A stretch of 32,000 nt of DNA from Halomicrobium mukohataei DSM 12286 (GTDB taxonomy: Archaea > Halobacteriota > Halobacteria > Halobacteriales > Haloarculaceae). Below are positions 2,970 through 30,183 of this stretch, one piece after another. Position numbers and translations under genes: made by a program. A model generated the notes under the pieces. It did not search any database. It saw only the letters and a program-made list of their open reading frames with translations, and had not been told where the DNA came from. The stretch is from NCBI RefSeq assembly GCF_000023965.1, contig NC_013202.1:1680001-1712000 (forward strand). The letters run 5' to 3'. Positions within the stretch are counted from its first letter, which is position 1. Each line of letters starts with the position of its first letter.

Positions 2970-3096
2970 TGTGTAGTTGTGTCGATATGACGGTCCACGA
3001 GCCGGCGTCGGTCCCAGTCGTCGCACTGTCACTGTTTCGAGCGACTCGCGACCACGTGATCGCGAGATCGGCCCAGACTGACAGTCGGCAGTGTCA

Positions 3097-3118
3097 TACG
3101 GACGGTTGTCGTTGCGTA
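3097..3118. mobile_element. 22-nt internally deleted relic of the TACGG...CCGTA foldback element, flanked by TCA/TCA
   Basis: TCA(3094-3096) TACGGACGGTTGTCGTTGCGTA TCA(3119-3121). The first 13 nt are identical to the left end of the copies at 9886 and 28647, and the right end keeps CGTA. Confidence 0.5.
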
Positions 3119-3238
3119 TCAGTAGAACGTGTCGGCGCAGTCGTACACGACACCGTGCACGGGACAGACGTACTTGCAGTGGCGGTGGTACATGGGCGTC
3201 TCGCACATCGGACAGGGCCGCCCACCGGTCTCGGTCAT
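3119..3238 (-). CDS. Small zinc-finger micro-protein (39 aa), below the ORF-track size cut-off
   Basis: The minus-strand ATG at 3238 to TGA at 3121-3119 encodes MTETGGRPCPMCETPMYHRHCKYVCPVHGVVYDCADTFY. It has two Cys pairs (CPxC and CxxxCPxH, plus one further Cys). Almost all codons end in G/C, as in the neighbouring genes. Confidence 0.55.
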   Translation of the reverse strand: MTETGGRPCPMCETPMYHRHCKYVCPVHGVVYDCADTFY

Positions 3239-4902: not shown

Positions 4903-5646
4903 TTAGCTCGTCGCCCCGTCCACGTCGACGCTCTGGGACCGCTCGGTCTCGTGCCCCAGCTGGGTCTTCAGCTGATCGAGTTCGCGATCGACTCGCTGTT
5001 CGGTCGAGCGTCGGTCCAGTTCCCGGTCGATCTCGTCGCCCTCTGCGAGCACGTCGTCGAGCGCACCGCTCGCCTCGAGCTCTTCGAGCGCAGCCGCTCT
5101 GGCCTCCATCTGCTCGGTCCGTTCGGTCGCACGCTCGATTGCACGGTTCACGTCGGCCATGTCGCCGCCGACCCCGGTGAACGCCTCGGCGACGCGGGCC
5201 GACGCCTCGGCCGCTTCGTGGCGCGCCTTCAGCGTCTCTTTGTGGGTCCGGAACCCCTCGATCCGTCCCCGAAGTTCGATCTGGCGCTGGACGAGCTGGT
5301 CCTGCGTCGCCTGCAGTCTGTCGATCTGTTCGTCCAGGCCAGCGAGCTGATCGCTCGTCGCGTGTTTCTTCTCCAGGGCGCGTCTGGCCAGCTCCTCACG
5401 CTCCTGTCGGAGTGCCTCCTGGGCTTGCTCGTCGTACTTCTCGACGGCCGCCCGCAGGCGTTCGCGGTGCATCTCCAGGCGCTTCTTCTGGGTGGTGAGG
5501 TCGGCGATGCCGCGGTTGATCTCCTGGAGCTCGTCTCGGAGTTGTTCGTAGGAGTAGTCCAGTTCTGCGACGGGGTCTTCGACGCGGTTCAACAGGGCGT
5601 CGAGCCACGACCGGACGACGAAGCCAAACCGCCGGAGCAGACTCAC
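4903..5646 (-). CDS. pspA: PspA/IM30 family protein (phage-shock protein A-like coiled coil)
   Basis: The sequence VSLLRRFGFVVRSWLDALLNRVEDPVAELDYSYEQLRDELQEI... is followed by heptad-rich coiled coil. I chose the GTG at 5646, which is preceded by GGAGGGTG. The upstream 43 aa of the tracked ORF are basic and atypical for an acidic proteome. Confidence 0.8.
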   Translation of the reverse strand: MSLLRRFGFVVRSWLDALLNRVEDPVAELDYSYEQLRDELQEINRGIADLTTQKKRLEMHRERLRAAVEKYDEQAQEALRQEREELARRALEKKHATSDQLAGLDEQIDRLQATQDQLVQRQIELRGRIEGFRTHKETLKARHEAAEASARVAEAFTGVGGDMADVNRAIERATERTEQMEARAAALEELEASGALDDVLAEGDEIDRELDRRSTEQRVDRELDQLKTQLGHETERSQSVDVDGATS

Positions 5647-5932
5647 GGGCGCACCCTCCGTTCGGGACGGTCGCGTCGGTAGGGGGTACTGTCCATGTCT
5701 ACACCAGAACGACGACCGAGCGGCGGTTAATCGTGGTTTCGGGTGACTGTCCACGAAGCGACCAGTCGCCTGCAAGTTCGTCCTCGCGTCGTCACTCGGT
5801 CTCGCGTGGCGAGATCTCGACAGCGGCCTGCGTCGAAAGAAGAGAACGAACGTCGCGAACCGAGAGTGTCACACGCTCTTGGCCCCGGGTGTGGCCGGCG
5901 GTCGGCCACGGAGATCCGCAGTCAGATCCTCA

Positions 5933-6012
5933 TACGGGCAGTTGTAGACACGTTCCCGGTCGATCGCACACCGTCGTGCGATCAATCCGGCGAGGAACTA
6001 CAACTGTCCGTA
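5933..6012. mobile_element. Foldback MITE copy A (80 nt), flanked by TCA (5930-5932) and TCA (6013-6015)
   Basis: TACGGGCAGTTGTAG...CTACAACTGTCCGTA terminal inverted repeats, with an internal GATCGCAC/GTGCGATC stem. The right-hand TCA is the complement of the nrdJ TGA stop codon. Confidence 0.8.
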
Positions 6013-9000
6013 TCAGCACTCCGACCAGCCACAGGACTCGCAGGTCTTGCAGCCTTCGGAGTAGTACAGCGACAGCGAGCTACACTCCGGACACTCCGGA
6101 TTCTCGCCCGCGTCGATCAGTTCCTGCTGGTCGGCGTCGGTGGCCTCGCCCGGCGACGACGGTTCTGTGCCCGCCGCGTCCGTGGCCGAACTGTCGGCGG
6201 TGACGGCACCGCCGTCGGTCTCGGGCACGTTCGGATCCGCACTGCCCGCCTCGTCTTCGGCGGTCTGTTCGAGCGTGGCCTGGTCCGGGTACGCCTTGTC
6301 GATTTCGTCGTCGAGATAGCGACGCATCGCCGTGCCGATGGCGTCGGGGATCGACTGGATCTGTTCGCCCTTGTCCCAGGCGACCTTGGGCGAGCGGATG
6401 CCCTGCAGTTCGTCTGCGATCTCCTTGGGATCGACGCCCGAACGGAGCGCCGTCGAGATGGTCTTGGCCAGGGCCTCGGTGAAGGAGGCCGTAAAGCCGC
6501 CGGAGTTCCCGATGTTGGCGAACAGCTCGAAGGGCCGTTCCCGCTCGGGGTCCTCGTTGATGTTGACGTACAGCTTCCCGTAGCCGGTGTCGATGCGCTG
6601 GGTGACGCCGTGGAGCACGTCCGGTCGGCTCTGCTTCTCGGCGAACGGGCTGGTCTCGGGCTGCTCGCCGTCGGCCACTTCCAGCAGCGACTCGACCTGC
6701 TGATCGAGTGCCTCCTGGACGGCCTCGTGTTCGAGGAAGCCCTCGATGCCGTCGAAGACCTCCTCGATCTGGGCGACGATCTCGCCCTCGTCCATGTCTG
6801 CGAACTCGGCGTTCTGGGCCCGCGTCGTCAGCACTTGCTTGCTGCGGGTGCCGTCGCGGTAGTAGGTGACGCCCTTGCCGCCGTGCTCGTAGATGTACTC
6901 GAACACTTCCCGGGCGTCCTCGAGCGTGGAGTCGTTGGGCGCGTTGACCGTCTTCGAGATCGCGGAGTCGACGCCCTGCTGGCAGGCACACTGGATGCCG
7001 GCGTGTTCTTTCGGCGTGAGGTCGCCGGTCGTGACGAACAGCTCGCCGATGGCGTCGGGCACCGTCGTCAGGCCGTCGACGCCGTCGAAGGCGTTGTCGG
7101 CCATCTGCTCTTGGGCCTCCTCCTTGACGGCATCGACGTCGATGCCGTTCTCCTCCAGCACGCGCAGGAAGTAGTCGTCGAACTCGACGAGCATCTCGTC
7201 GCCTTGCACGTCGTCGGAGACGTTCTTGTAGTAGGCGACGTTGTAAATCGGCTCACAGCCGCCGGTGGTGTTGCCCACCATCGAGGTGGTGCCAGTCGGC
7301 GCGATCGTGGTGGTGTTGTGGTTGCGGATCGGGAAGCCCTCGGCCCACTCGTCGGCGTCGAGGCCGGTCTGGGACTCGAACCACTCCCGGTAGGCCGTCG
7401 GGTCCGCGTACTTGGAGTTGTCCCACTCGTCGAAGGTGCCCCGATCCTCGGCGAGTTCGTGGCTGGCCCACTTCGAGCCGTGGTTGATCTGGCGCATGAT
7501 CTGGCGGGCGATCTCGTCGCCCTCCTCGGAGCCGTACTTGACCCCGAGCTGGATGTACAGCTGGGCCAGTCCCATGATGCCCAGCCCGATCTTGCGCATC
7601 TCTCGGACCTTCTCCTCGATCTTCTCGACCGGGAAGTCCGACATCGTGACGACGTTCTCGAGGAAGCGCGTTCCCAACTCGATGCGGCGCTGGAACTCCT
7701 CGTTGTCCAGCGCGTCGTCGAGGAAGGCATCGACGGCGTCTTCGAGCGCATCGTACTCGTCGGCGTGGGCGTCGGACCAGACACGCCAGTCCGGGGCGTC
7801 CTGGTCGGCCAGCGTCGAGAGGTTGATGTGCCCGAGGTTACAGGCCTCGTACTCCTCCAAGGGCTGTTCGCCGCAGGGATTCGTCGCGAGGATGCGGTGG
7901 TCGGGGTGTTCCTCCACGTCGAAGGAGTGTTGCTTGTTGACGCGTTCGAGATAGATCACGCCCGGTTCGCCGTTCTCGTGTGCGCCGCCGATGATGCGCT
8001 CCCAGAGCTTCTCTGCGGGGATCGACAGCACTTCGCCGGCCTCGACGTACTCGCCGAGGTCGAACATCTCGTACAGTTCCTGGGTCTCCTCGGTGGCGAC
8101 GTGGGGCTCGTTCGTCCGCGGGTTGGTGAAGGTGAACTCCTCGCCGGCCTCCAGTGCGTCCATGAAGTCGTCGGTGATGCCGACGGAGATGTTGAAGTTC
8201 GAGAGGTGACCCTCGACGGCGTTGCGGAGGTGCTTCGGGACTTTGCCGTCCTCGTCGATGAGTTCGCGGGCCTCCTCCAGGGCCTCGGCGAAGGAGTTGT
8301 GCGTGAAGTCGTCGGGGTCGTTCAGTCGCAGGGTCTCGGCCAGCGAGACGTCCTTGTTCTTGGCGTGGATGAACTGGATGACGTCCGGGTGCGAGACGCG
8401 CATGACGCCCATCTGAGCGCCACGGCGGGCACCACCCTGTGCGATCGTCTCGCACATCTGGTCGTAGGTGCGCATGAACGTGATTGGGCCAGAGGCGATG
8501 CCGCCGGTCGAGCCGACCTGATCGCCGTACGGCCGCAGTTGCCAGAAGGCGTATCCCATGCCACCGCCCGACTGGAAGACCTGTGCGGCCTCCTTGGCGG
8601 TCTGGTGGATGTCGTCGATGTCGTCGTCGGGCGAGTCGACGAAACAGGCCGAGAGCTGCTGGAGTTCGTCACCGGCGTTCATCAGCGTCGGCGAGTTCGG
8701 CATGAACGACAGGTTCTCCATCGCGTCCTGGAACTCGCCGGCCACGTTCTCGACGTGGTCTCGTAGCTCGTCGGGCAGTTCGGGGACGACGGTGTCGTAC
8801 GCGAACTTGTTGACGTTGTACACCGACAGCTCGGTCTCGGCGTCGTCGCCGACGGTGGTTCCCTTGCCGAACACTTCCCCGGCGAGTTCGTCACGCCGCG
8901 GGTGATCGGGTTTGAGCTGGTCCGGGGTGACCGTCACGTCGACGCCCCGTTTGTCGGCTTCGAAGACGGCTTCGGCCAGGGCGACGTTCTTCCCGACCCG

Positions 9001-9174
9001 ATCGAACAGATCCTCTTGCTGTTCGATCAGTTCGCCGTCGGCGTCCTTGCGGAGATAGCGGGCGGGCAGAATGTTGTGGTAGGCGTTGCCAGTGAGTCGG
9101 TCTTCGAGCGTGTCGCCGGTCGTCCGCTTGATCGGCAGCTGTACCTCGTCGGCACCTGCACCTGCGTCGCTCAT
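6013..9174 (-). CDS. nrdJ: Adenosylcobalamin-dependent (class II) ribonucleoside-diphosphate reductase
   Basis: Start trimmed to the Met at 9174 ([21 protein letters not shown]...). Motifs include [27 protein letters not shown] and [11 protein letters not shown]. The C-terminal Cys cluster is [30 protein letters not shown]. Confidence 0.92.
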   Translation of the reverse strand: [1053 protein letters not shown]

Positions 9175-9702
9175 TCCTCGGTCCTCCTGCCGACAGTGGC
9201 CGTCTGTCGGGCGATACCCCTCTCGATGATGCGTGTAGATCCTCTCATTCGTAACGACGGTTGTGTTTGTACGGACTGCTAAATACCCAGCGATACGTGT
9301 CCCCGCGGGCACGCGGCGGGAGACAGACCGCCGGGTGGTTTCGACGCTATGCGAAGTATCACTGGTGGGTAATATCAGCCACGATCCAGCGGGCAGCGCA
9401 CGCGATTCGCTGTACGATACATAGCAAACGCCGACAGTACATTAATGGAGTGAGACCGGAGTGAAAGTGAAAACCAGGTCCCGGAAACCACTAGACGAGA
9501 GCCGAAATTTCAGTCGAAATAGTCGGGGGTTTCGACTGGAGATTCCGCAGACGGCCGGCGAGGATCGCCGGTCGATCGCGCCGCGCCGTCGTCGTTCAGT
9601 CTTGCATTTTTTGTTTCTGATACGTTCGCCGTGTCCCGGCGCGACGGCGCGGCCAGTGAGCACGGCGACAAAGCATATGCCGATGGGCGGTGAGGGGCCA
9701 GT

Positions 9703-9885
9703 ATGCTCCTGACTATCGGCGGGTTCGGAACGATCCCCGCCCTGCTGGTCGGCCTCGCCGCGCTGGCTGTCGTGATCTTGATCGGGCGGATCGTCCTCAA
9801 GTTCGCGTGGCGACTGGTCGTTCTCGCCGCGGTCGCCGTCGGCGTGCTCTACCTGCTCGGACTGTTCGGCATCTCCGTGCTCTGA
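9703..9885 (+). CDS. Small two-helix membrane protein (60 aa)
   Basis: MLLTIGGFGTIPALLVGLAALAVVILIGRIVLKFAWRLVVLAAVAVGVLYLLGLFGISVL. It has a strong GC3 codon bias and two hydrophobic spans. Its TGA stop (9883-9885) doubles as the left flank of MITE copy B. Confidence 0.55.
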   Translation: MLLTIGGFGTIPALLVGLAALAVVILIGRIVLKFAWRLVVLAAVAVGVLYLLGLFGISVL

Positions 9886-9965
9886 TACGGACGGTTGTAG
9901 GCGTTTACCCAGTCGACCGCACGACGGCGTGCGGTCGATCTGGTAAAGACCTACAACTTTCCGTA
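9886..9965. mobile_element. Foldback MITE copy B (80 nt), flanked by TGA (9883-9885) and TGA (9966-9968)
   Basis: TACGGACGGTTGTAGGCGTTTACCCAGTCGACCGCACGACGGCGTGCGGTCGATCTGGTAAAGACCTACAACTTTCCGTA. It is identical to copy D at 28647-28726. About 36 of 38 possible positions pair in the foldback. Confidence 0.85.
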
Positions 9966-9992
9966 TGATCGAGTCGACAGACGCCGCCAGGT

Positions 9993-12882: not shown

Positions 12883-13877
12883 GCCTCGCCTCTGAGCTCG
12901 TCGAACTTCCGGGCGGCGTCGCCGGACTCGATCGCCTCGCGAGCCGCCTCGACGCCGGCCTCGTGGCTGTCGGCTTCACCGGCGACGTAGATCGCCGCGC
13001 CCGCGTTCGCGAGGATGATGTCCTGTTTCGGTCCGGTGACGGTCCCCTCGACGATCCCTCGCAGGTCCTCGGCGTTTTCTTCGGGCGTGCCGCCGGCCAC
13101 GTCTTCGATGTCGGCCGTCGTCAGTCCGATGTCCTCCGGGACGAGCGTGTACTCCTCGATCTCGGAACCGGTGACCTCTGCGACGACGGTCTCTCCGTGG
13201 ATCGCGATCTCGTCGAGGCCCGATCCGTGGACGACCATCGCTCGCTCGACGTCCATCCGAGCCAGTGCCTCCGCGATCGTCGACACGAGGGCCGGATCGT
13301 AGACGCCGAGCACCTGCGCGTCCGCACCGGCGGGGTTGGTCAGCGGTCCGAGGATGTTGAAGATGGTCCGCATGCCGAGTTCCTTGCGCGGGCCGATGAC
13401 GGCCTTCATCGCCGGGTGGAAGACGGGCGCGAGCATGAACCCGATCCCGTCGTCCTCGATGGCCTGCTCGACCTGTGGCGGTTCGGCCTCCACGTCGACG
13501 CCGGCCACCTCCAGCACGTCCGCGCTCCCCGACGAGGAGGAGACTGAGTAGTTACCGTGCTTGGCGATGGGGACGCCGGCACCCGCGGCGACCATCGTGC
13601 TCGTCGTCGAGACGTTGATCGTGTCGTAGTCGTCGCCGCCGGTGCCACAGGTGTCGACCAGCGGCCGCCGGTCGGGGTCGATCGTCCGCGCGGCGTCGCG
13701 CATCCCCTCGGCGAAGCCGGCGATCTCCGCTTCGGTCTCCCCTTTCGCTCGCAGACCCGCCAGCAGTGCCCCGATCTGGGCCTCCGTGGCGTCCTCGAAG
13801 ACCGCCGTCGCTGCCTCGCGAGCCTCGTCCTGTGTCAGATCCTCTCCCTCGGTCACGCGTTCGATGTATTCCTGCAT
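12879..13877 (-). CDS. trpD: Anthranilate phosphoribosyltransferase
   Basis: DTCGTGGDDYDTINVST, IAKHGNYSVSSSSGSADVLE, FMLAPVFHPAM and NILGPLTNPA. Confidence 0.92.
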   Translation of the reverse strand: MQEYIERVTEGEDLTQDEAREAATAVFEDATEAQIGALLAGLRAKGETEAEIAGFAEGMRDAARTIDPDRRPLVDTCGTGGDDYDTINVSTTSTMVAAGAGVPIAKHGNYSVSSSSGSADVLEVAGVDVEAEPPQVEQAIEDDGIGFMLAPVFHPAMKAVIGPRKELGMRTIFNILGPLTNPAGADAQVLGVYDPALVSTIAEALARMDVERAMVVHGSGLDEIAIHGETVVAEVTGSEIEEYTLVPEDIGLTTADIEDVAGGTPEENAEDLRGIVEGTVTGPKQDIILANAGAAIYVAGEADSHEAGVEAAREAIESGDAARKFDELRGEA

Positions 13878-14113: not shown

Positions 14114-14187
14114 GGGTTGGTGGTCTAGTTGGTTATGACACCTCCTTGACATGGAGGAGGCCGGCGGTTCAAATCCGCCCCAACCCA
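14114..14187 (+). tRNA. tRNA-Val (anticodon GAC)
   Basis: GGGTTGGTGGTCTAGTTGGTTATGACACCTCCTTGACATGGAGGAGGCCGGCGGTTCAAATCCGCCCCAACCCA. The acceptor stem GGGTTGG/CCAACCC, the anticodon stem CCTCC/GGAGG with loop TTGACAT, and the T-arm GGCGG-TTCAAAT-CCGCC all fold by hand. No encoded CCA. Confidence 0.9.
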
Positions 14188-18096: not shown

Positions 18097-18303
18097 CGCC
18101 CTCCTTCCTCTGTATCCGCCGAGCCCCGCGAGGCGGTTCACTCGATCGAACGGTGCGAGGCGCGCCGAAGGCGGCCCTCGATGTGAACGGGGAACGAACT
18201 GACCCGTGAACGGAGTGAGATCGAGCGTTTTTCACCCACGTTTTTACGCGAGGGTTCCCGCAGTGAGCGAAGCGAGCGAGGAAACCCGACGCGGAAAAAG
18301 GTG

Positions 18304-18348
18304 GAGGAGTACCGCGGCCAGCTGCTGCGGAAGCTGGGCGAGCTGTAG
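18304..18348 (+). repeat. Orphan duplicate of the last 45 nt (including the stop) of the CBS gene, identical to 18052-18096
   Basis: GAGGAGTACCGCGGCCAGCTGCTGCGGAAGCTGGGCGAGCTGTAG occurs twice, separated by a 207-nt hairpin-rich insert (18097-18303). Confidence 0.9.
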
Positions 18349-18422
18349 GGGTCGACGGCGTTCTTTTCCACACGTTTTGATCGGGCATCTTCGCTCTGGC
18401 ACGATGGAGTATCGCGGCACCG

Positions 18423-18815
18423 TCACGGCGCGGTTCGGCCGTCGTTCGAGCGTCGCTCTGCCAGCAACAGAACGACGCCACCGAGGAGCGTCACGTAGAC
18501 TCCGACGTCGGCGATAAACATGCCAATGATTCCGTATTTACCGACACAAAAAGTGACGGACGTCACTACTGCGACGGTTCCGACCGACACTCGAAACGAA
18601 CTCTCGCTGACCCATTTGAGGTCACTGACCATTCCCAGAGCAGTGACGAGCGCAAGTACGAGCGTGACGAGACCGTACGTTTCTGTCCCGGAATGCATCC
18701 CCGGTAGTCCGACTGTCAGGATCGCCTCGTGCGTCGGGTTAGCCCTGACCCACGGTAGATACGCCCCAACGAGGAGAAAACACAGACCGATCCAGACTCG
18801 TCTCCGTGAGTGCAT
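18423..18815 (-). CDS. Hypothetical four-helix membrane protein with atypical (A/T-richer) codon usage
   Basis: Trimmed to the Met at 18815 (MHSRRRVWIGLCFLLVGAYLPWV...). It is hydrophobic throughout. Third-codon positions are visibly less G/C-rich than in the flanking genes. Confidence 0.5.
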   Translation of the reverse strand: MHSRRRVWIGLCFLLVGAYLPWVRANPTHEAILTVGLPGMHSGTETYGLVTLVLALVTALGMVSDLKWVSESSFRVSVGTVAVVTSVTFCVGKYGIIGMFIADVGVYVTLLGGVVLLLAERRSNDGRTAP

Positions 18816-19004
18816 CGCTATCTCGTACACTGCCCGCTGGAGGTTGTAGTTCTTCTGTCCGATATTTCGGTCAAATGACTGGAACGACCACGCTGGCAGT
18901 CGGAGAACAGCCAATCAGATACGGCCGAAACTTCCGTGTCGAAGTTCGTCCCGACAGTATTTTTATGGAGTGTGCGAGTGAAATTGAAGACGCGAACCGC
19001 TCGA

Positions 19005-19488
19005 TTACGATCGATACTCGTCGATGTCGACGGCGCGTCTCGTCTCCTCGTGTGTGAGATCGCTGTCGGCGGAGACGATCGGTGCGCCCCACTCACGGCC
19101 GACCGCAGCCACGAGTCCGTCGACGCCGTCGAGATACGGTCCGCCGGCCGGAATCTCGTCTGCGATCCGGGCAGCGGTCTCGGACAGTTCCGCATCGACT
19201 TCGACGACCTCTACCCAGCCCAGCGCCTCGATCGCTTCCTCTAAGTCGCCGTCTGGGTGGTTGCCGACGCCGACGATCGCTTCGGTGTACGCTGGTGCGG
19301 GTGCGATCCAGGTTTGGTCGGCACCACCGTTGGCCTCGTAGTACTCTCTCGTCGCCGAGAGCCCACTCATACGGATTATTGTAGCGATTTACCGGTGATC
19401 GTCTACTCCGTGGCGACGATCACCGGTAAGCAACTACAATAAACCGTATCAGGTAATCGATGAGAAAATTCGCGTCCAGGACTCTCAT
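19005..19488 (-). pseudogene. vapC: vapC (PIN-domain toxin) interrupted after codon 13 by MITE copy C
   Basis: The ATG at 19488 overlaps the antitoxin stop (ATGA) and encodes MRVLDANFLIDYL. The 79-nt element follows. Removing 19370-19451 (82 nt) joins it in frame to SGLSATREYYEANGG...GAPIVSADSDLTHEE..., giving a 133-aa PIN protein. Confidence 0.85.
19370..19448. mobile_element. Foldback MITE copy C (79 nt), flanked by TCA (19367-19369) and TCA (19449-19451)
   Basis: TACGGATTATTGTAG...CTACAATAAACCGTA termini. The divergent centre is TTACCGGTGATCGTC / GACGATCACCGGTAA, a perfect 15-bp stem. Confidence 0.85.
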
Positions 19489-19727
19489 CGATCTCCCAGC
19501 CGCTCCGCGCGGTCCGCACGCTCGTCTCTGGCCTTGGCTCGTTTCGTCCGGATCCACTCACCTTGTTCCTCGGACAGCACCCCGAACCCGTCGTCGAAGT
19601 CACTCTCCGTGGTGTCGGCGATCAATCGTTCGAGGACGTCGTTGTACGACTCGCCCTCGCGTCGCCGGTGTTCGAGGCGTTCTTTGATCCGTTCACTGAC
19701 CCGGATCTGTTCGTCGGCGGTTGCCAT
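19485..19727 (-). CDS. vapB: Antitoxin of the vapBC pair (ribbon-helix-helix-like, 80 aa)
   Basis: Trimmed to the Met at 19727: MATADEQIRVSERIKERLEHRRREGESYNDVLERLIAD... is the usual haloarchaeal antitoxin pattern. The stop overlaps the vapC ATG. Confidence 0.75.
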   Translation of the reverse strand: MATADEQIRVSERIKERLEHRRREGESYNDVLERLIADTTESDFDDGFGVLSEEQGEWIRTKRAKARDERADRAERLGDR

Positions 19728-19754
19728 CGCTCGTGTCGACGTTGGCGTTGACAG

Positions 19755-19760
19755 AATAAA
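19755..19760 (-). promoter_or_regulatory. TATA box candidate of the vapBC operon
   Basis: The minus strand reads GATTTATTC, with TTTATT ending 28 nt upstream of the vapB ATG. This spacing fits a leaderless transcript. Confidence 0.45.
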
Positions 19761-19820
19761 TCGTTTGGCTCTCCCCATCCGGTCGTGTTCAGATAAGAGA
19801 TCAGTGCAGGCAGTCTGAAG

Positions 19821-20109
19821 CACCGAAAGCCCTCGTACAGTTGCGGTCCCGCGACTCGCTGTGCGCGCTTCGCGTGCTTGTTCTGAGAGAGCAAGCTCTC
19901 TCGACGTTCGCCTCTCTTCGTTCGGGTCACCTTCGTCGGGGTTCCCGCAACTGTACTCGCCCTTTCATCCGCCAGGGTTCAGACTGTGAGGCAGCCGAAT
20001 CCTGGCGGATGAAAGGGCGAGGCCCGCTCCGGGGTTCTGCGGCGGCACTATCCGAACGGAGTGAGGATATCCGCCACAGAACCCCGGAGCGGGCCGAGGG
20101 CTTTCGGTG
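19821..20109. repeat. 289-nt composite palindromic element: a 15-bp closing stem enclosing three abutting long hairpins
   Basis: CACCGAAAGCCCTCG (19821-19835) pairs with CGAGGGCTTTCGGTG (20095-20109). The three inner stems are TACAGTTGCGG/CCGCAACTGTA, the 21-bp perfect stem 19956-19976/20001-20021, and the 24-bp stem 20022-20045/20071-20094 with one mismatch. Confidence 0.8.
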
Positions 20110-20231
20110 TCTCCAACTCAGAAAATGCAGCGGCTTATCTGAACACTACCCCCCATCCGGTCGTGTTCGGATATGAGATTTGAGAGGGCACTACTCAAGC
20201 GCCGAATGATTATTAAAATTACAAGAGTCGC

Positions 20232-20405
20232 TCAAATACCGGAATTCGTATAACCTGACAATGTTGGAAACAGGAACAGTAGAAGAAGTAGTATCGCTAG
20301 AACTGCGTGTTTGTAACGTCGGTTGTATCCCGAATATCCGGCGCCGAACAGGAGTCCAAGGATGCATAGTGCATAGATGATAGAAGGGATGTTTACACCA
20401 AACAT
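20232..20405 (-). CDS. Possible 57-aa two-helix membrane micro-protein inside a low-GC islet
   Basis: The minus-strand ATG at 20405 to TGA at 20234-20232 encodes MFGVNIPSIIYALCILGLLFGAGYSGYNRRYKHAVLAILLLLLFLFPTLSGYTNSGI. It is below the ORF-track cut-off and its A/T-rich codons are unlike the host genes. Confidence 0.35.
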   Translation of the reverse strand: MFGVNIPSIIYALCILGLLFGAGYSGYNRRYKHAVLAILLLLLFLFPTLSGYTNSGI

Positions 20406-20862
20406 ATTTACAACCCGCTTCGACTACATTAGAATTCTACGATTTCCGGATAATAGTGTGCAATAGACTAGCTGATACTAACAGCTATGATAAACTGCAG
20501 GTGGCCGTAATCTGGGTGGTCTGATGTCTCTGTGAGCGTATCTGAGAACTCATCTCGTAGCTTTTCCCAGCCAGGATCGTTCCCCCGTCCCAAGTTTGTA
20601 CCTGTACTGATGTATCGGAGGTATAGCCCAACGTACAGTGACCATGTCTCCATCCGTCGTGAGGCGGGGATGAATTGACCAGGACGCCCACTGGAGATGA
20701 CCAATGGGCGGACTACCTGTTGTGTTGGGCGGCATTCGCGCGACCGAGTGGTCCGAAGGACCCGGCAGGTCGCGCAATTCACCGGACGAGCGAAGCGAGT
20801 CCGGCCTTTTTCACCACCGGGAGAGCTCGCTCTCCCGAGCCTCACTTCGCTTCGCTCAGTGA

Positions 20863-20923
20863 GACCACGTTTTTGCGCAAGTGGTTCGCGCACCGCGCGA
20901 ACCCGCAGCCGAAAAAGGTGGTC
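20863..20923 (-). terminator. Hairpin plus oligo-T immediately after the cdc48 stop (terminator candidate, symmetric on both strands)
   Basis: GACCACGTTTTTGCGCAAGTGGTTCGCGC-ACC-GCGCGAACCCGCAGCCGAAAAAGGTGGTC. On the cdc48 strand the stop codon is followed by ACCACCTTTTTCGG. Confidence 0.4.
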
Positions 20924-23145
20924 TACTGGAAGCCGATGCGGCCGCCACCGCGGGTCTGCTGGGGTTCGCCGCCGCCCTTGAATTCGTCTTGCATCTGCTC
21001 GTAGTAGTCGCGGATGTCGTCGGTGATCGTCGGGCGCACGTTCTCCATGGCCTGCCGGAAGTGCCTCATCTCGACCATCTCGGCGTCGTCGTCCTCGCGC
21101 AGCGCCTCGATGGCGGCCTCGCGGCCGATCGACTCCAGGTCGGAGCCGACGTAGCCGTCGGTCATCTCCGCGAGTTCGCGCAGGCTCACGTCCGGCGACA
21201 GCGGCGTGTCGTCGGTGTGGATCTTGAGGATCTGCTCGCGGCCCTCGATACCGGGTTCGCCGACCATCACCAGCCGGTCGAACCGACCCGAGCGGATCAG
21301 TGCCGGATCGATCATGTCCGGCCGGTTGGTCGCGCCGATCACCATCACCTCTTCCATCTCTTCGAGCCCGTCGAGTTCGGTCAGCAGCTGGTTGACGACG
21401 CGTTCGGAAACGTTGCTCCCGGTCTCGCCGCCACGTCCCGGTGCGAGGGAGTCGAGTTCGTCGAAGAAGATCACCGTCGGTGCGACCTGCCGGGCCTTCC
21501 GGAAGGTCTGACGGATCGCCTTCTCCGACTCGCCGACCCACTTCGAGAGGAGCTGTGGTCCCCGCACCGAGATGAAGTTGGCGTCAGTCTCGTTGGCGAC
21601 GGCTTTGGCCATCAGGGTCTTTCCGGTCCCCGGCGGCCCGTACAGCAGGACGCCAGATGGCGGTGAGACGCCCATGCGCTCGAACTTCTCCGGGCTGTTC
21701 ATCGGCCACTCGACGGACTCCTGGACCTGCTCTTTGGCGTCGTCGAGACCGCCCACGTCGTCCCAGGAGATCTTCGGGAGCTCGACCAGCACCTCCCGCA
21801 TGGCGCTGGGACTCACCTCGTTGAGGGCCCCGCGGAAGTCCTCCCGTTTGATGATCATGCGGTCGATCAGGCTCGGCGGGATGTCCTCCTCGTCTAAGTC
21901 GATCTCGGGGAGGTACCGACGCAGCGCCTTCATCGCGGCCTCTTTGGTCAGGCTCTCGATGTCGGCACCGACGAAGCCGTGGGTCTCGGTCGCCAGATTC
22001 GAGAGGGCCACGTCGTCCGAGAGAGGCATCCCGCGGGTGTGGATCTGGAGGATCTCCTCGCGGCCGACCTCGTCGGGGACGCCGATCTCGATCTCGCGGT
22101 CGAACCGGCCCGGCCGGCGCAGTGCCGGGTCGACGCTGTCGACGCGGTTGGTCGCGGCGATGACGATGACCTGGCCGCGTGATTCGAGACCGTCCATCAT
22201 CGTCAGCAGCTGGGCGACGACGCGGCGCTCGACCTCGCCGGTCACGTCCTCGCGCTTGGGCGCGATCGAGTCTAGCTCGTCGATGAAGATGATCGAGGGA
22301 GCCTCCTCGCTGGCGTCCTCGAAGATCTCCCTGAGTTGCTGTTCGGACTCGCCGTAGTACTTCGAGATGATCTCCGGACCGGCAATAGAAAAGAAACTGG
22401 CGGAGGTCTCGTTGGCGACGGCCTTCGCGAGCAGGGTCTTGCCCGTACCCGGTGGACCGTGGAGCAACACCCCCTGTGGCGGCTCGATGCCGAGCTTCTT
22501 GAAGATCTGGGGGTGTTTCATCGGCAACTCGACCATTTCGCGGACCCGCTGGATCTCACTGGAGAGGCCGCCGATGTCCTCGTAGGTGATGCCGCCGCCG
22601 GTCTTCTCGAAGCCGCTGATGGGCTCTTCGCGCAACTCCACGTCCGTGTCCTCGGTGATGAGACAGACGCCCTCCGGCTCGGTCTCGACGGCGATCAGCG
22701 GGATCGCCTGGCCCGGCGAGCGCATGAACGGGTGGTTCGTACTGGACATTACGGGGACGATGTCGCGCTCGACGACCGGGCGCTTGAGGATCTGGCGCTT
22801 GACCATGCCGGCCGCGTCCGAGCCGAACTGTACGCTGGCTTCCTCCGGCGGAGCCAGCACGAGCTTGTCGGCCTTCTCGGCGTCGGCCTTGCGGATCGTC
22901 ACGCGTTCGCCGATGCCCACGTCGGCGTTCTGTCGCGTGAAACCGTCGATGCGCACCGTGTCGGTGTTCCAGTCCTGTCGATCCGCACGCCACACTTTCG
23001 CGGCGGTGGTCTCACTTCCCTCGATCTCGATGATGTCGCCGGGCGAGAGCTTGAGATGCAAGAGCGTGTCCGGATCCAGGCGAGCGATACCGCGCCCCGA
23101 GTCGTTCGGGTACGCTTTCGCGACCTCCAGTTGAACCTCGTTCAT
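20923..23145 (-). CDS. cdc48: CDC48/VCP-type AAA+ ATPase
   Basis: N-domain [25 protein letters not shown]. There are two AAA modules, each with GPPGTGKTL(L/M)AKAVANE and a DEL(D) Walker B. Length 740 aa. Confidence 0.95.
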
Positions 23146-28540: not shown

Positions 28541-28646
28541 GCACGGTCTTGCGCCGGACATCCGTATCAGGCTTTCCCTTCGCCCAACCGTCGACTGTCC
28601 ACGTCGCTTCCGGACGCCGGTCTACACGGACGCTCGTCGTTGCTCA

Positions 28647-28726
28647 TACGGACGGTTGTAGGCGTTTACCCAGTCGACCGCACGACGGCGTGCGGTCGAT
28701 CTGGTAAAGACCTACAACTTTCCGTA
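28647..28726. mobile_element. Foldback MITE copy D (80 nt), flanked by TCA (28644-28646) and TCA (28727-28729)
   Basis: The sequence is identical to copy B at 9886-9965. It lies between the two phoU paralogs. Confidence 0.85.
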
Positions 28727-28823
28727 TCAGTCACCGTCCGTCTCGTGCTGCCGGCTGTCACGTCGTGACGAGATTCGCCACTCCGGAGCGGCGAAATCCC
28801 TCACAGATGGACAGCCGGTCGTA

Positions 28824-29492
28824 TCAGTAGATCAGTTCGTCGTCGCTCTCGATCATGTAGAAGGTCCGGGCAGCGATGTTGACGGCGTGGTCGCCGACCC
28901 GTTCGAGGTCGCGGACGGTCAGGAGAAACTGCTTGGTGTCTGCCAGCAGCGCCTCGTGCTCGTCGCCGGCCGCGTCGTACGTCGCCAGGTATCGCACGAG
29001 GTCGTCGGCCGCGGCCTCACAGCGCTGGTCGAGGTCCGTATCGTCGGCCACGACCGTCCGACACTGCTCTGGGTCCTCCTCGACGTAGGCCGCGATCGCG
29101 TCGGCCACCTGGCTGCTGGCCATCTCGGCGATGTCGGCGATCGGGACGACGGTGAGGCGGTCGCGTCCGGGCGTCCCGGCGTACCGGCCGATGTTGGCGG
29201 CGAGGTCGGCGATTCGCTCCAGATCGGTGAGAATCTTGAACGTCGCGACGACGAATCTGAGATCGCCGGCCACGGGCTGTTGGAGCGCCAGCAGATCGAT
29301 ACACTCGCTTTCGAGTTCGAGATACAGCTCGTTGACCTCGTCGTCGCGCTCGGCGATCTCCCGGCCGCCGTCCTCGTCGCCGTCCTCGTAGGCGCGTGCC
29401 GCCTCGCGGAGGCGCTCGACGACCAGCGTCGCCATCGACGTGACGCCCTCTTTCAGCGTTTCGAGCTCGGTTTCGTAGCGATCTCGTGTCAT
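28824..29492 (-). CDS. phoU: PhoU-domain phosphate regulator (paralog 2)
   Basis: Trimmed to the Met at 29492 (MTRDRYETELETLKEGV...ALQQPVAGDLRFVVATFKILTDLERIADLA...LERVGDHAVNIAARTFYMIESDDELIY). Confidence 0.85.
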   Translation of the reverse strand: MTRDRYETELETLKEGVTSMATLVVERLREAARAYEDGDEDGGREIAERDDEVNELYLELESECIDLLALQQPVAGDLRFVVATFKILTDLERIADLAANIGRYAGTPGRDRLTVVPIADIAEMASSQVADAIAAYVEEDPEQCRTVVADDTDLDQRCEAAADDLVRYLATYDAAGDEHEALLADTKQFLLTVRDLERVGDHAVNIAARTFYMIESDDELIY

Positions 29493-29514
29493 GTGTCTCC
29501 GTTCGATCGGTAGC

Positions 29515-30183
29515 TCACTCGATCCGGACGCCCAGTCGGTCGGCCAGTTCGTAGAGGTCTGCGACCTCGTAGGTCGGCGTCGCCGAGAGATCGAGGTCGG
29601 CGCGGTGGTCACGCCGGAGGAACGCCGAGTCGATCCCGGCCCGCTGGGCAGCGACCACGTCTTTCTCGCTGTCGCCGACGTACAGCGCCGATCGCGTGCC
29701 GAGGTCGTCGAGCGCCGCCTCGATGTAGCTTGGGTCCGGCTTCCTGCGTCTCGCGCCTTCTATTGTGGGGACGCGTCCGTACGCGGTCTCGAAGTGTCTC
29801 CCGAGGTCGTGGTGGTCGAGGATGAACTCGATCGTCGCGTGCTGGTTGTTGCTGACGAGGCCGGTCCTGTGGGGCAGGGCTGTCACTGCGTCGCTGTCGT
29901 CGTACAGTGCTTTCTCACCGCTTCGAATCGCCTGGCGCTGGTACTCGCTGGCGATGGCTTCGCGCCGCTCCCAGAACCGTGCGGGGTCGATCCCGTACTC
30001 GCGTTCGAAGTCGCCGTCGGGTACGGCACCGGCGGCGACCATCTCGCGGGCGCGCGCCTCGTCGACCGTCACGTCGAACTCGGCGAAGGTGTCGCTTACT
30101 GCCCGGGCCAACCGTCCTCTGTCGGTCGGTTCGATGAGAACTCCGTCGTTGTCGAAGACGACCGCGTCGTACGCTGGTGCCAT
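29515..30183 (-). CDS. HAD-superfamily hydrolase (phosphatase-like)
   Basis: Motif I is AVVFDNDGVLIEP, motif II is GLVSNN, and motif III/IV is YVGDSEKDVVAAQRAG. Confidence 0.8.
   Translation of the reverse strand: MAPAYDAVVFDNDGVLIEPTDRGRLARAVSDTFAEFDVTVDEARAREMVAAGAVPDGDFEREYGIDPARFWERREAIASEYQRQAIRSGEKALYDDSDAVTALPHRTGLVSNNQHATIEFILDHHDLGRHFETAYGRVPTIEGARRRKPDPSYIEAALDDLGTRSALYVGDSEKDVVAAQRAGIDSAFLRRDHRADLDLSATPTYEVADLYELADRLGVRIE

Follow-up and report, generated by a model that had tools for sequence, protein, structure and literature searches.

A 79–80 bp hairpin repeat that duplicates T(G/C)A in Halomicrobium and other Halobacteria: a probable family of non-autonomous DNA transposons

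Introduction

A 3-bp target duplication together with a palindromic extended target is typical of PIF/Harbinger transposons, and the PIF target is CWC-TTA-GWG. The Correia/NEMIS repeats of Neisseria are approximately 100–155 bp long and duplicate TA. IS200/IS605-type and REP transposition produces no target duplication, and it is the element that dictates the flanking sequences. In the IS1031 group of the IS5 family, a three-nucleotide insertion site is common (PMC2516522).

Several small repeats have been described from haloarchaea. The non-autonomous DNA transposons (MITEs) of Halobacterium (MITEHsal) and Haloquadratum (HqIRS) are free of transposase genes, carry inverted repeats, make target duplications, and vary between strains; they often insert beside or into other small elements and have been assigned by their termini to known ISH transposon classes (PMC3119063, PMC7002104). 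The HqIRS elements are described merely as smaller than 500 bp, and the duplications of the described haloarchaeal MITEs are longer than three base pairs, e.g., 5 and 7 bp (PMC7002104). The small mobile repeats of Haloquadratum (SMR-A) are approximately 110 bp long and have conspicuous inverted repeats at their termini; the ends resemble those of no known transposon, and how the repeats are mobilized has been termed enigmatic (PMC3119063). PATEs, which derive from IS200/IS605 elements, have subterminal hairpins only, with neither terminal inverted repeats nor a target duplication (PMC3119063). REPs are 20–40 bp long and lack a target duplication; G:T pairs are frequent in them, which suggests a function as RNA (PMC3733652). 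A MITE collection was begun in ISfinder only recently (PMC7002104), and according to a large automated survey MITEs number in the hundreds in one unclassified Haloarculaceae genome (PMC11602168).

The DNA analyzed here, referred to as the window, is a stretch of 32,000 nt from Halomicrobium mukohataei DSM 12286 (contig NC_013202.1, positions 1,680,001–1,712,000). Over its first 20.6 kb, the window is mismatch-free against GenBank record CP045142.1, a 3.09-Mb chromosome (assembly GCA_009217585.1). A preliminary description of the window proposed that it contains a foldback MITE family with TACGG...CCGTA inverted termini. Like Tourist-like MITEs, PIF/Harbinger elements, and IS1031-like IS5 elements, the members of this family are short, non-coding, and present in high copy number, with terminal inverted repeats and a 3-bp T-N-A duplication centered in an extended palindromic target. 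Unlike in those systems, the middle base of the triplet is G or C rather than A or T, the hosts are archaeal, and the element forms a hairpin over its full length, with a stem that covaries; the TACGG... termini, too, are presumably unlike IS5 or PIF ends. The Correia/NEMIS repeats differ in having bacterial hosts and unrelated sequences. MITEHsal and HqIRS share the host group, but here the elements are 79–80 bp long with a 3-bp duplication and ends that are not of ISH type. SMR-A shows no target duplication and prefers IS605-type elements, whereas the 79–80 bp family makes a TSA duplication and prefers gene ends. As in REP/BIME (RAYT) repeats, a GTAG box sits beside a stem-loop, the stem carries compensatory changes, and the termini can supply the stop codon of a neighboring gene (PMC3733652); unlike REP/BIME repeats, the family duplicates its target and is free of strand bias. 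Our literature search for a named description of the 79–80 bp TACGG family found none. It seems to be a new family of MITEs, an element type already known, and to be unnamed in the literature searched; its copies may already be included in automated catalogs.

Results

Copies in the window and their host genes

The four full copies and the 22-nt relic listed in the preliminary description were all recovered at the same coordinates (Table 1), and every one of the five is bracketed by a directly repeated T(C/G)A triplet, as had been claimed. The reported identity of copies B and D also held: the two agree at 80/80 bases in the same orientation but differ in their flanks (TGA/TGA versus TCA/TCA). 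The terminus had been given as TACGG-N3-5-TTGTAG; both boxes stand, but the spacer is exactly 4 nt rather than 3–5 nt. Eight exact arms of the form TACGG-N4-TTGTAG occur within the window. When up to two mismatches were allowed, the terminus matched at 16 window positions compared with 2.5 expected, and 0/100 shuffles reached 16. Taken as single strands, the window copies each fold into one long hairpin, with energies of -25 to -32 kcal/mol and z scores of -6.0 to -8.7. At the Rfam gathering score there was no match to the element, and the sole match in the window was a tRNA (14114–14187).

Table 1. Repeat copies in the window, with their flanking triplets and the genes that they touch. Positions are those of the window.
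Feature	Length	Element	With flanks	Flanking triplets	Basis	Adjoining or host gene
Sister copy, degenerate, right end ...GACAGTCGGCAGTG		~3019–3093	to 3096 with shared TCA	TCA (3094–3096) common to sister copy and relic	left boundary approximate	abuts relic
Relic	22-nt remnant	3097–3118	3094–3121	TCA/TCA	sequence read	39-aa gene, 3119–3238 (minus); its TGA stop codon is the right TCA (3119–3121)
Copy A	80 bp	5933–6012	5930–6015	TCA/TCA	sequence read	class II ribonucleotide reductase gene, 6013–9312 (minus); its TGA stop codon is the right TCA (6013–6015)
Copy B	80 bp	9886–9965	9883–9968	TGA/TGA	sequence read	60-aa membrane protein gene, 9703–9885 (plus); its stop codon is the left TGA (9883–9885)
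Copy C	79 bp	19370–19448	19367–19451	TCA/TCA	sequence read	inside a minus-strand vapC (PIN) toxin gene; gene fragments 19005–19369 and 19449–19490
Copy D	80 bp	28647–28726	28644–28729	TCA/TCA	sequence read	spacer between two PhoU-family genes, off any stop codon
Sister copy, degenerate, TGCTGCCGGCTGT...ACAGCCGGTCGTA	78 nt	28746–28823	to 28826 with right TCA	right TCA (28824–28826)	inverted-repeat search	right TCA is the stop codon of a PhoU-family gene, 28824–29612 (minus)

The copies had also been called intergenic except for one that splits a gene. The exception is copy C, but for copies A and B and for the relic the description needs to be sharpened, because one flanking triplet is itself the stop codon of the neighboring gene. 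The product of the 39-aa gene beside the relic ends in ...VYDCADTFY*. A Pfam scan of this product gave no match, and an orthologue of the gene has a precomputed match to PF28087 (HVO_2523). Similarly, a scan of the 60-aa product beside copy B gave no match, and an orthologue has a precomputed match to PF26072 (DUF8029).

The split gene could be reassembled. Deletion of copy C and one triplet in silico produced a 133-aa ORF in which a Pfam PIN domain spans the junction (residues 3–118, E = 8.6e-9), so that an intact PIN ORF is restored, in agreement with the gene disruption originally proposed. The target at copy C was C-TGA-G, out of frame. The ORF upstream of the split vapC has a Pfam match to VAPB_antitox (VapB antitoxin gene).

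Anatomy of the element

To describe the element from its ends to its center, 34 diverse copies were aligned and the base pairs counted. Positions 1–5 (TACGG) and 10–15 (TTGTAG) are invariant on both arms in the 34 copies; positions 6–9, which lie between them, are variable yet paired, with compensatory changes (one pair is A-T in 15 copies and G-C in 13). Next to the second box is a constant 4-nt bubble (positions 16–19), unpaired in 18–32 of the 34 copies depending on the position, which is followed by the conserved TTTACCGG (positions 20–26). The inverted end therefore extends over approximately 26 bp, TACGG-N4-TTGTAG-N4-TTTACCGG. Further inward is a variable 11-bp inner stem (positions 27–37) with many double changes, one pair being G-C in 16 copies and T-A in 12, and the center is a loop of approximately 6 nt. 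The covariation score was 0.238 compared with 0.112 after shuffling; none of 500 shuffles reached 0.238, and slid controls scored 0.055–0.125.

Mismatches between the arms are distributed symmetrically between the strands: 177 would be G:T on the TGA strand and 177 would be G:T on the other strand (A:C). This gives no sign of selection on one transcribed strand and is as expected for an element that acts at the DNA level. Some pairs of subfamilies differ solely by an inverted loop, which is what recombination between the arms would produce. A common metagenome subfamily combines a TTGTAG arm with an opposite arm that reads CTGTAA or ATGTAA, indicating that the second box tolerates change.

Census and origin of the flanking triplet

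One genome per archaeal and bacterial species was scanned, and the matches listed include at least 120 genome blocks of 8 kb, most of them from Halomicrobium katesii. The hosts among the matches listed are Halomicrobium, several species of Haloarcula, Halorhabdus, Salinadaptatus, Natrialba, Natronococcus, and uncultured Halobacteriales. Together with the window, these blocks contain at least 145 copies, of which 73 are 80 bp long and 62 are 79 bp long (135/145). The preliminary description had suggested tabulating the flanking triplets in such a census. Among the 145 listed copies the flanks are TGA/TGA in 74, TCA/TCA in 61, TTA/TTA in 1, and non-matching in 9, i.e., the triplet is directly repeated in 136/145.

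A TCA copy reads as a TGA copy when reverse complemented; a triplet that depends on the orientation of the element was thus an alternative that had to be tested with identical copies. One 80-nt sequence, that of copies B and D, occurs at least 14 times in one orientation, flanked by TGA/TGA at 10 sites and by TCA/TCA at 4. Within the listed matches, 12 of these 14 copies are in H. katesii and the other two are B and D themselves. Further sets of identical copies, each in one orientation, have similarly mixed flanks (6 versus 2 and 4 versus 3). Because identical copies in one orientation are found with either triplet, the triplet comes from the target and not from the element, and the T(G/C)A 3-bp duplication is derived from the target. 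The same conclusion had been drawn from B and D alone and now extends to several identical sets. Insertion occurs in either orientation. The presence of identical copies at many loci also indicates recent activity and shows the element to be mobile now, or to have been so recently.

Empty and filled sites in related genomes

The two genomes closest to that of the window, H. katesii DSM 19301 (approximately 98% DNA identity) and Halomicrobium sp. LC1Hm (approximately 95%), were compared with the window around the ribonucleotide reductase gene. At the site of copy A, the window reads ...GATCC TCA (element) TCA GCACTCC and H. katesii reads ...GATCC TCA ACACTCC, which is element-free with one triplet; LC1Hm has a diverged copy at this site, with a terminus mutated to TGCGG. 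The site of copy B is filled in H. katesii by a copy with 1 nt different (L121 9220–9299) and is empty in LC1Hm, where a single TGA is present. The relic of the window recurs in H. katesii, and at exactly this site LC1Hm has a full 80-bp copy (L123 17226–17305). Occupation of the same orthologous sites in all relatives, with no empty sites, had been named at the outset as a finding that would favor a conserved structural motif; instead, site A is empty in H. katesii and site B is empty in LC1Hm.

The history of empty site A may be more complex. The adjoining 370 bp in H. katesii share only 85% identity with the window, compared with 96–98% on either side, which suggests that the empty site may have arisen from replacement by a foreign allele rather than from precise excision. 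A further candidate empty-site pair (L108 against L050 and L008) was the best among the fetched blocks and was rejected because its sequences had diverged too far for a clean comparison.

Target preference and stop codons

Empty sites were reconstructed and aligned in the TGA orientation. The preferred bases, with their frequencies, are G.59, A.51, and C.75 before the TGA and G.63, A.47, C.56, and G.54 after it. The target is about 9 bp long and forms a near-palindrome, GWC-TSA-GWC, with the duplicated triplet at its center; at the W positions A is favored on both sides, and the palindrome is imperfect as a result. The flank preference is equal at stop-codon sites and elsewhere.

At 116/225 copies, the duplicated TGA is the exact end of a coding-like ORF in the same frame, compared with 2 and 4 copies for the other two frames. 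Occupancy was then modeled using crude gene calls based on third-position G+C, which overestimate the intergenic background. If every non-coding or stop TSA site were used equally, 7% of copies would fall on stop codons; use of C-TSA-G sites alone would place 21%, and a position-weight model trained on non-stop insertions would place approximately 38%; the observed share in this comparison is 47–49%. TGA is the commonest stop codon (486/844 rough gene calls), and just 3–8% of copies, approximately, lie inside predicted genes.

Sister families

A sister family with the ends TACTG-N4-CTGT...ACAG-N4-CAGTA and a length of 77–78 nt is flanked by TGA/TGA or TCA/TCA in 6/6 intact copies. Another variant, TACTGATTAGTGTC..., is also flanked by TGA. 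Copies of different families often adjoin one another, share a triplet, or nest, and two degenerate sister copies are present in the window (Table 1).

Search for the mobilizing enzyme

The preliminary description reported no transposase gene in the window, and we likewise found none, either among those ORFs of the window that were tested or in the annotation precomputed for this region. It had also proposed a search for a longer element with the same termini enclosing a transposase ORF, and this search came back empty: the 1.85 Mb of haloarchaeal DNA fetched, which contains approximately 270 short copies, has no longer element with the same or related ends, no inverted-repeat-bounded element combining a TNA duplication with a transposase ORF, and, in the fetched loci, no transposase or autonomous element related to PIF/IS5. 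Unpaired termini in the at least 120 genome blocks belong to truncated or nested copies alone. A metagenome scan with a pattern that excluded 79–80-mers returned 78-nt variants, asymmetric-end variants, and truncated halves, with no partner.

Several candidates were rejected. Pairing of TSA-TACGG with CCGTA-TSA at 100–6000 bp gave two chance pairs, in one of which (L241) an ATPase and a DinB-like polymerase lie between the ends. When terminal inverted repeats of any 7-bp sequence were sought at 500–4000 bp, together with a TNA duplication, only pairs of separate small copies emerged, and relaxed termini gave no partner (L211 encloses a metabolic gene). The multi-copy elements of H. katesii have unrelated ends; one looks like an IS1595-family element by precomputed Pfam matches, and the other, judged from its ORF and ends, looks IS66-like. 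The plasmid collection gave three weak matches with nothing annotated under them, and the first 50 kb of the H. mukohataei JP60 plasmid contain no transposase. In viral contigs, one terminus was matched once, by chance, and no full copy was present. No Y1 transposase is annotated in the copy neighborhoods seen, and no integrase adjoins the copies examined.

Discussion

The repeat is very probably a non-autonomous DNA transposon (MITE) in the form of a near-complete hairpin palindrome of 79–80 bp that duplicates T(G/C)A. It is too short to contain an ORF, has terminal inverted repeats and a target-derived duplication, and is present in multiple copies whose presence or absence varies. The evidence for this reading is the repeated triplet at 136/145 copies and its independence of orientation, the empty sites, the identical copies, the restored PIN ORF, the target logo, and the sister families. 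We infer that a transposase supplied in trans would bind the inverted ends of approximately 26 bp, cut the target with a 3-nt stagger, and join the element to it, after which gap repair would leave the 3-bp duplication. The duplication length and the palindromic extended target suggest, as a guess that falls somewhat short of probable, that the enzyme could be of the DDE type found in the IS5 family (IS1031-like) or PIF/Harbinger. Four points count against the MITE explanation as a whole: the 1.85 Mb fetched yielded no autonomous partner, the covarying 11-bp inner stem and the constant bubble exceed what simple end recognition needs, the termini begin with TA, whereas IS5-family ends usually begin with G, and empty site A may reflect allele replacement instead of excision.

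A related possibility, which we consider unlikely, is that the TACGG and TACTG families form a superfamily of hairpins of approximately 80 nt whose mobilizing enzyme is on no same-ended element. A single-copy host or plasmid enzyme might then act on them, might recognize the folded architecture of two boxes, bubble, and covarying stem instead of a linear inverted repeat, and would still make a 3-bp duplication; if true, this would be a hitherto undescribed way of moving small elements in archaea.

Movement of the hairpin as single-stranded DNA by a Y1/HUH enzyme, in the manner of REP/BIME-RAYT repeats or an IS200/IS605-derived palindrome, is an alternative explanation. Recognition would be of the GTAG box and the stem-loop, by an enzyme encoded in a single-copy gene not bounded by such ends, which is compatible with the lack of an inverted-repeat-bounded autonomous partner in 1.85 Mb. 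Each arm reads ...TTGTAG followed by a stem, the stem covaries around a conserved bubble, and a GTAG tag with a palindrome defines many REPs (PMC3733652). Such movement is nevertheless very unlikely, because identical elements in the same orientation are flanked by TGA/TGA or by TCA/TCA, empty sites contain one triplet, and the element has true terminal inverted repeats. REP/RAYT transposition has no duplication and has flanks set by the element, neither of which applies to the 79–80 bp family, and the terminal inverted repeats and duplication of the family also separate it from PATEs. The flanks, which are always T-S-A, could instead be read as the duplicated 3-bp crossover core of a tyrosine or serine recombinase acting on an attC-like folded site or a small circle, and two conserved boxes with a spacer followed by a variable stem do recall folded recombination sites. 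If the core belonged to the element, the middle base would follow the orientation of the element, and no such tie is seen; the copies are single and scattered rather than in cassette arrays, and the copies examined have no adjoining integrase. We therefore give site-specific recombination a very low probability.

The placement of copies raises two further questions, of function and of targeting. Approximately half of the copies begin directly after a stop codon, and the hairpin is strong and its stem covaries, as would be expected of a structural or regulatory motif (a 3'-end RNA hairpin or terminator) that is held in place by selection and not mobile. Presence and absence differ, however, at orthologous sites in genomes that are 95–98% identical, and these empty sites refute the motif as the primary explanation. 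Identical copies occur at many unrelated loci, copy C disrupts a gene, mismatches of the G:T and A:C types favor neither strand with respect to the gene upstream, Rfam gave no match, and the target-sequence model alone gives approximately 38% of copies on stop codons compared with approximately 47% observed. The probability left to this explanation is close to nil, and a secondary role of the hairpin after insertion is possible. The alternative that the element is a MITE whose enzyme is guided to gene ends, which would make stop-codon occupancy mechanistic, draws on the excess of the observed 47–52% over the 7% of the uniform model and the 21% of the C-TSA-G model. It is also unlikely, since the position-weight model from non-stop insertions already predicts approximately 38%, the flank preference is the same at stop and non-stop sites, and crude gene calls inflate the intergenic background.

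For the MITE as preferred here, the stop-codon association is real and arises mostly as a side effect of the target preference and of the exclusion of copies from coding sequence, because GAC-TGA fits the target, TGA is the commonest stop codon, and the protein is unaltered by an insertion there. When an element inserts on a stop codon, the left TGA still serves as the terminator and the protein is unchanged; such insertions survive, and approximately half of the copies are of this kind.

As a compact, very clean MITE family that has sister families and occurs in several genera of Halobacteria, the repeat is worth cataloging. Its sites differ between genomes that are 95–98% identical and could serve as strain-typing markers. 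Three features lift it above the routine: the exact placement on stop codons, the covarying hairpin architecture, and the lack of a detected partner despite identical copies at many loci. The copies also provide a natural experiment, in which a strong 80-nt hairpin has been placed directly behind the stop codon in approximately half of cases, and this set could be used to probe effects on translation termination and mRNA 3' ends in archaea. Finally, the insertions explain oddities of annotation, of which the split vapC gene is one. Another is found in H. katesii, where a sister copy that is absent from the window and from LC1Hm lies within pspA; the 78 nt of the element and the 3 nt of the duplication add 81 nt, which leave the frame open, and the gene call reads through the insertion.

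Sister-family copies, one of them within pspA

The sister families (77-78-nt elements with TACTG termini and the same TSA duplication as the 79-80-bp main family) are represented in the coding region of pspA in Halomicrobium katesii (Table). This insertion amounts to 78 + 3 = 81 nt with a reading frame free of stop codons, and the annotated H. katesii gene, called at 274 aa, spans it. The copy is absent from the window and from the second close relative, Halomicrobium sp. LC1Hm; the empty equivalent lies near window 5558-5560 and reads CCA, not TCA, in both. The window has two degenerate sister-family copies of its own. One, approximately 20 bp from main-family copy D, has a flank that falls on a PhoU-family gene's stop codon, and the other adjoins the 22-nt main-family relic, with one triplet common to both.

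Coordinates of sister-family copies and other repeats
Feature	Sequence	Position	Remark
Sister-family copy	L121 (H. katesii)	13508-13585	within pspA coding region
Degenerate sister-family MITE copy	window	28746-28826	ends TACTGCCGGCTGT...
Degenerate sister-family MITE copy	window	~3019-3096	ends TACTGCCGGCTGT...
Hairpin-rich repeat, ~290 nt	window	19820-20110	within 18097-20864
Palindrome, 30-nt arms	window	20862-20924	AGACCACGTTTTTGCGCAAGTGGTTCGCGC / ...

Variant, nested and interrupted copies

Main-family copies resembling copy C (C-type) occur in the H. katesii blocks as two variants, each with at least eight copies, which share the same arms and have reverse-complemented central loops (GCCACGGAGTA versus TACTCCGTGGC); the loop has been inverted between the arms. 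An abundant subfamily in the metagenome loci (L125-L244) has unequal second boxes, with TTGTAG in one arm and CTGTAA or ATGTAA in the other, and a 78-nt length class is likewise common among these loci, which were collected with a scan pattern built to exclude 79-80-mers.

Two main-family copies stand in tandem at L078 4050-4211, separated solely by a shared triplet, and a sister-family copy is nested within a main-family copy at L011 4179-4418. At L025 7801-7880, a C-type copy ends 5 bp short of its right end and is followed by sequence starting GGCCTTGTTTAGAC, which resembles the terminus of an insertion sequence that has inserted into the MITE; the block stops 120 bp beyond the interrupted copy.

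Differences among close relatives

Window 18097-20864, which includes the vapBC pair struck by copy C, has no counterpart in LC1Hm, where approximately 715 bp are found instead. The palindrome is located exactly at the edge of this stretch. The hairpin-rich repeat inside it also occurs in several H. katesii blocks among the matches listed, two of which (L072 and L076) carry copies that are 98% alike; Rfam returned only generic hairpin matches for this repeat, all sub-threshold.

Next to the site of copy A, intergenic window 5560-5932 is only 85% identical to H. katesii (L121 13160-13506), versus 96-98% in the flanks, which suggests a recombination tract. The LC1Hm ribonucleotide reductase (1425 aa) is interrupted by an intein that includes a homing endonuclease of the LAGLIDADG type (L123 11299-12414). 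The window and H. katesii proteins (1053 aa) have no intein, the equivalent point being window ~7876/7877, and the intein therefore varies among close relatives.
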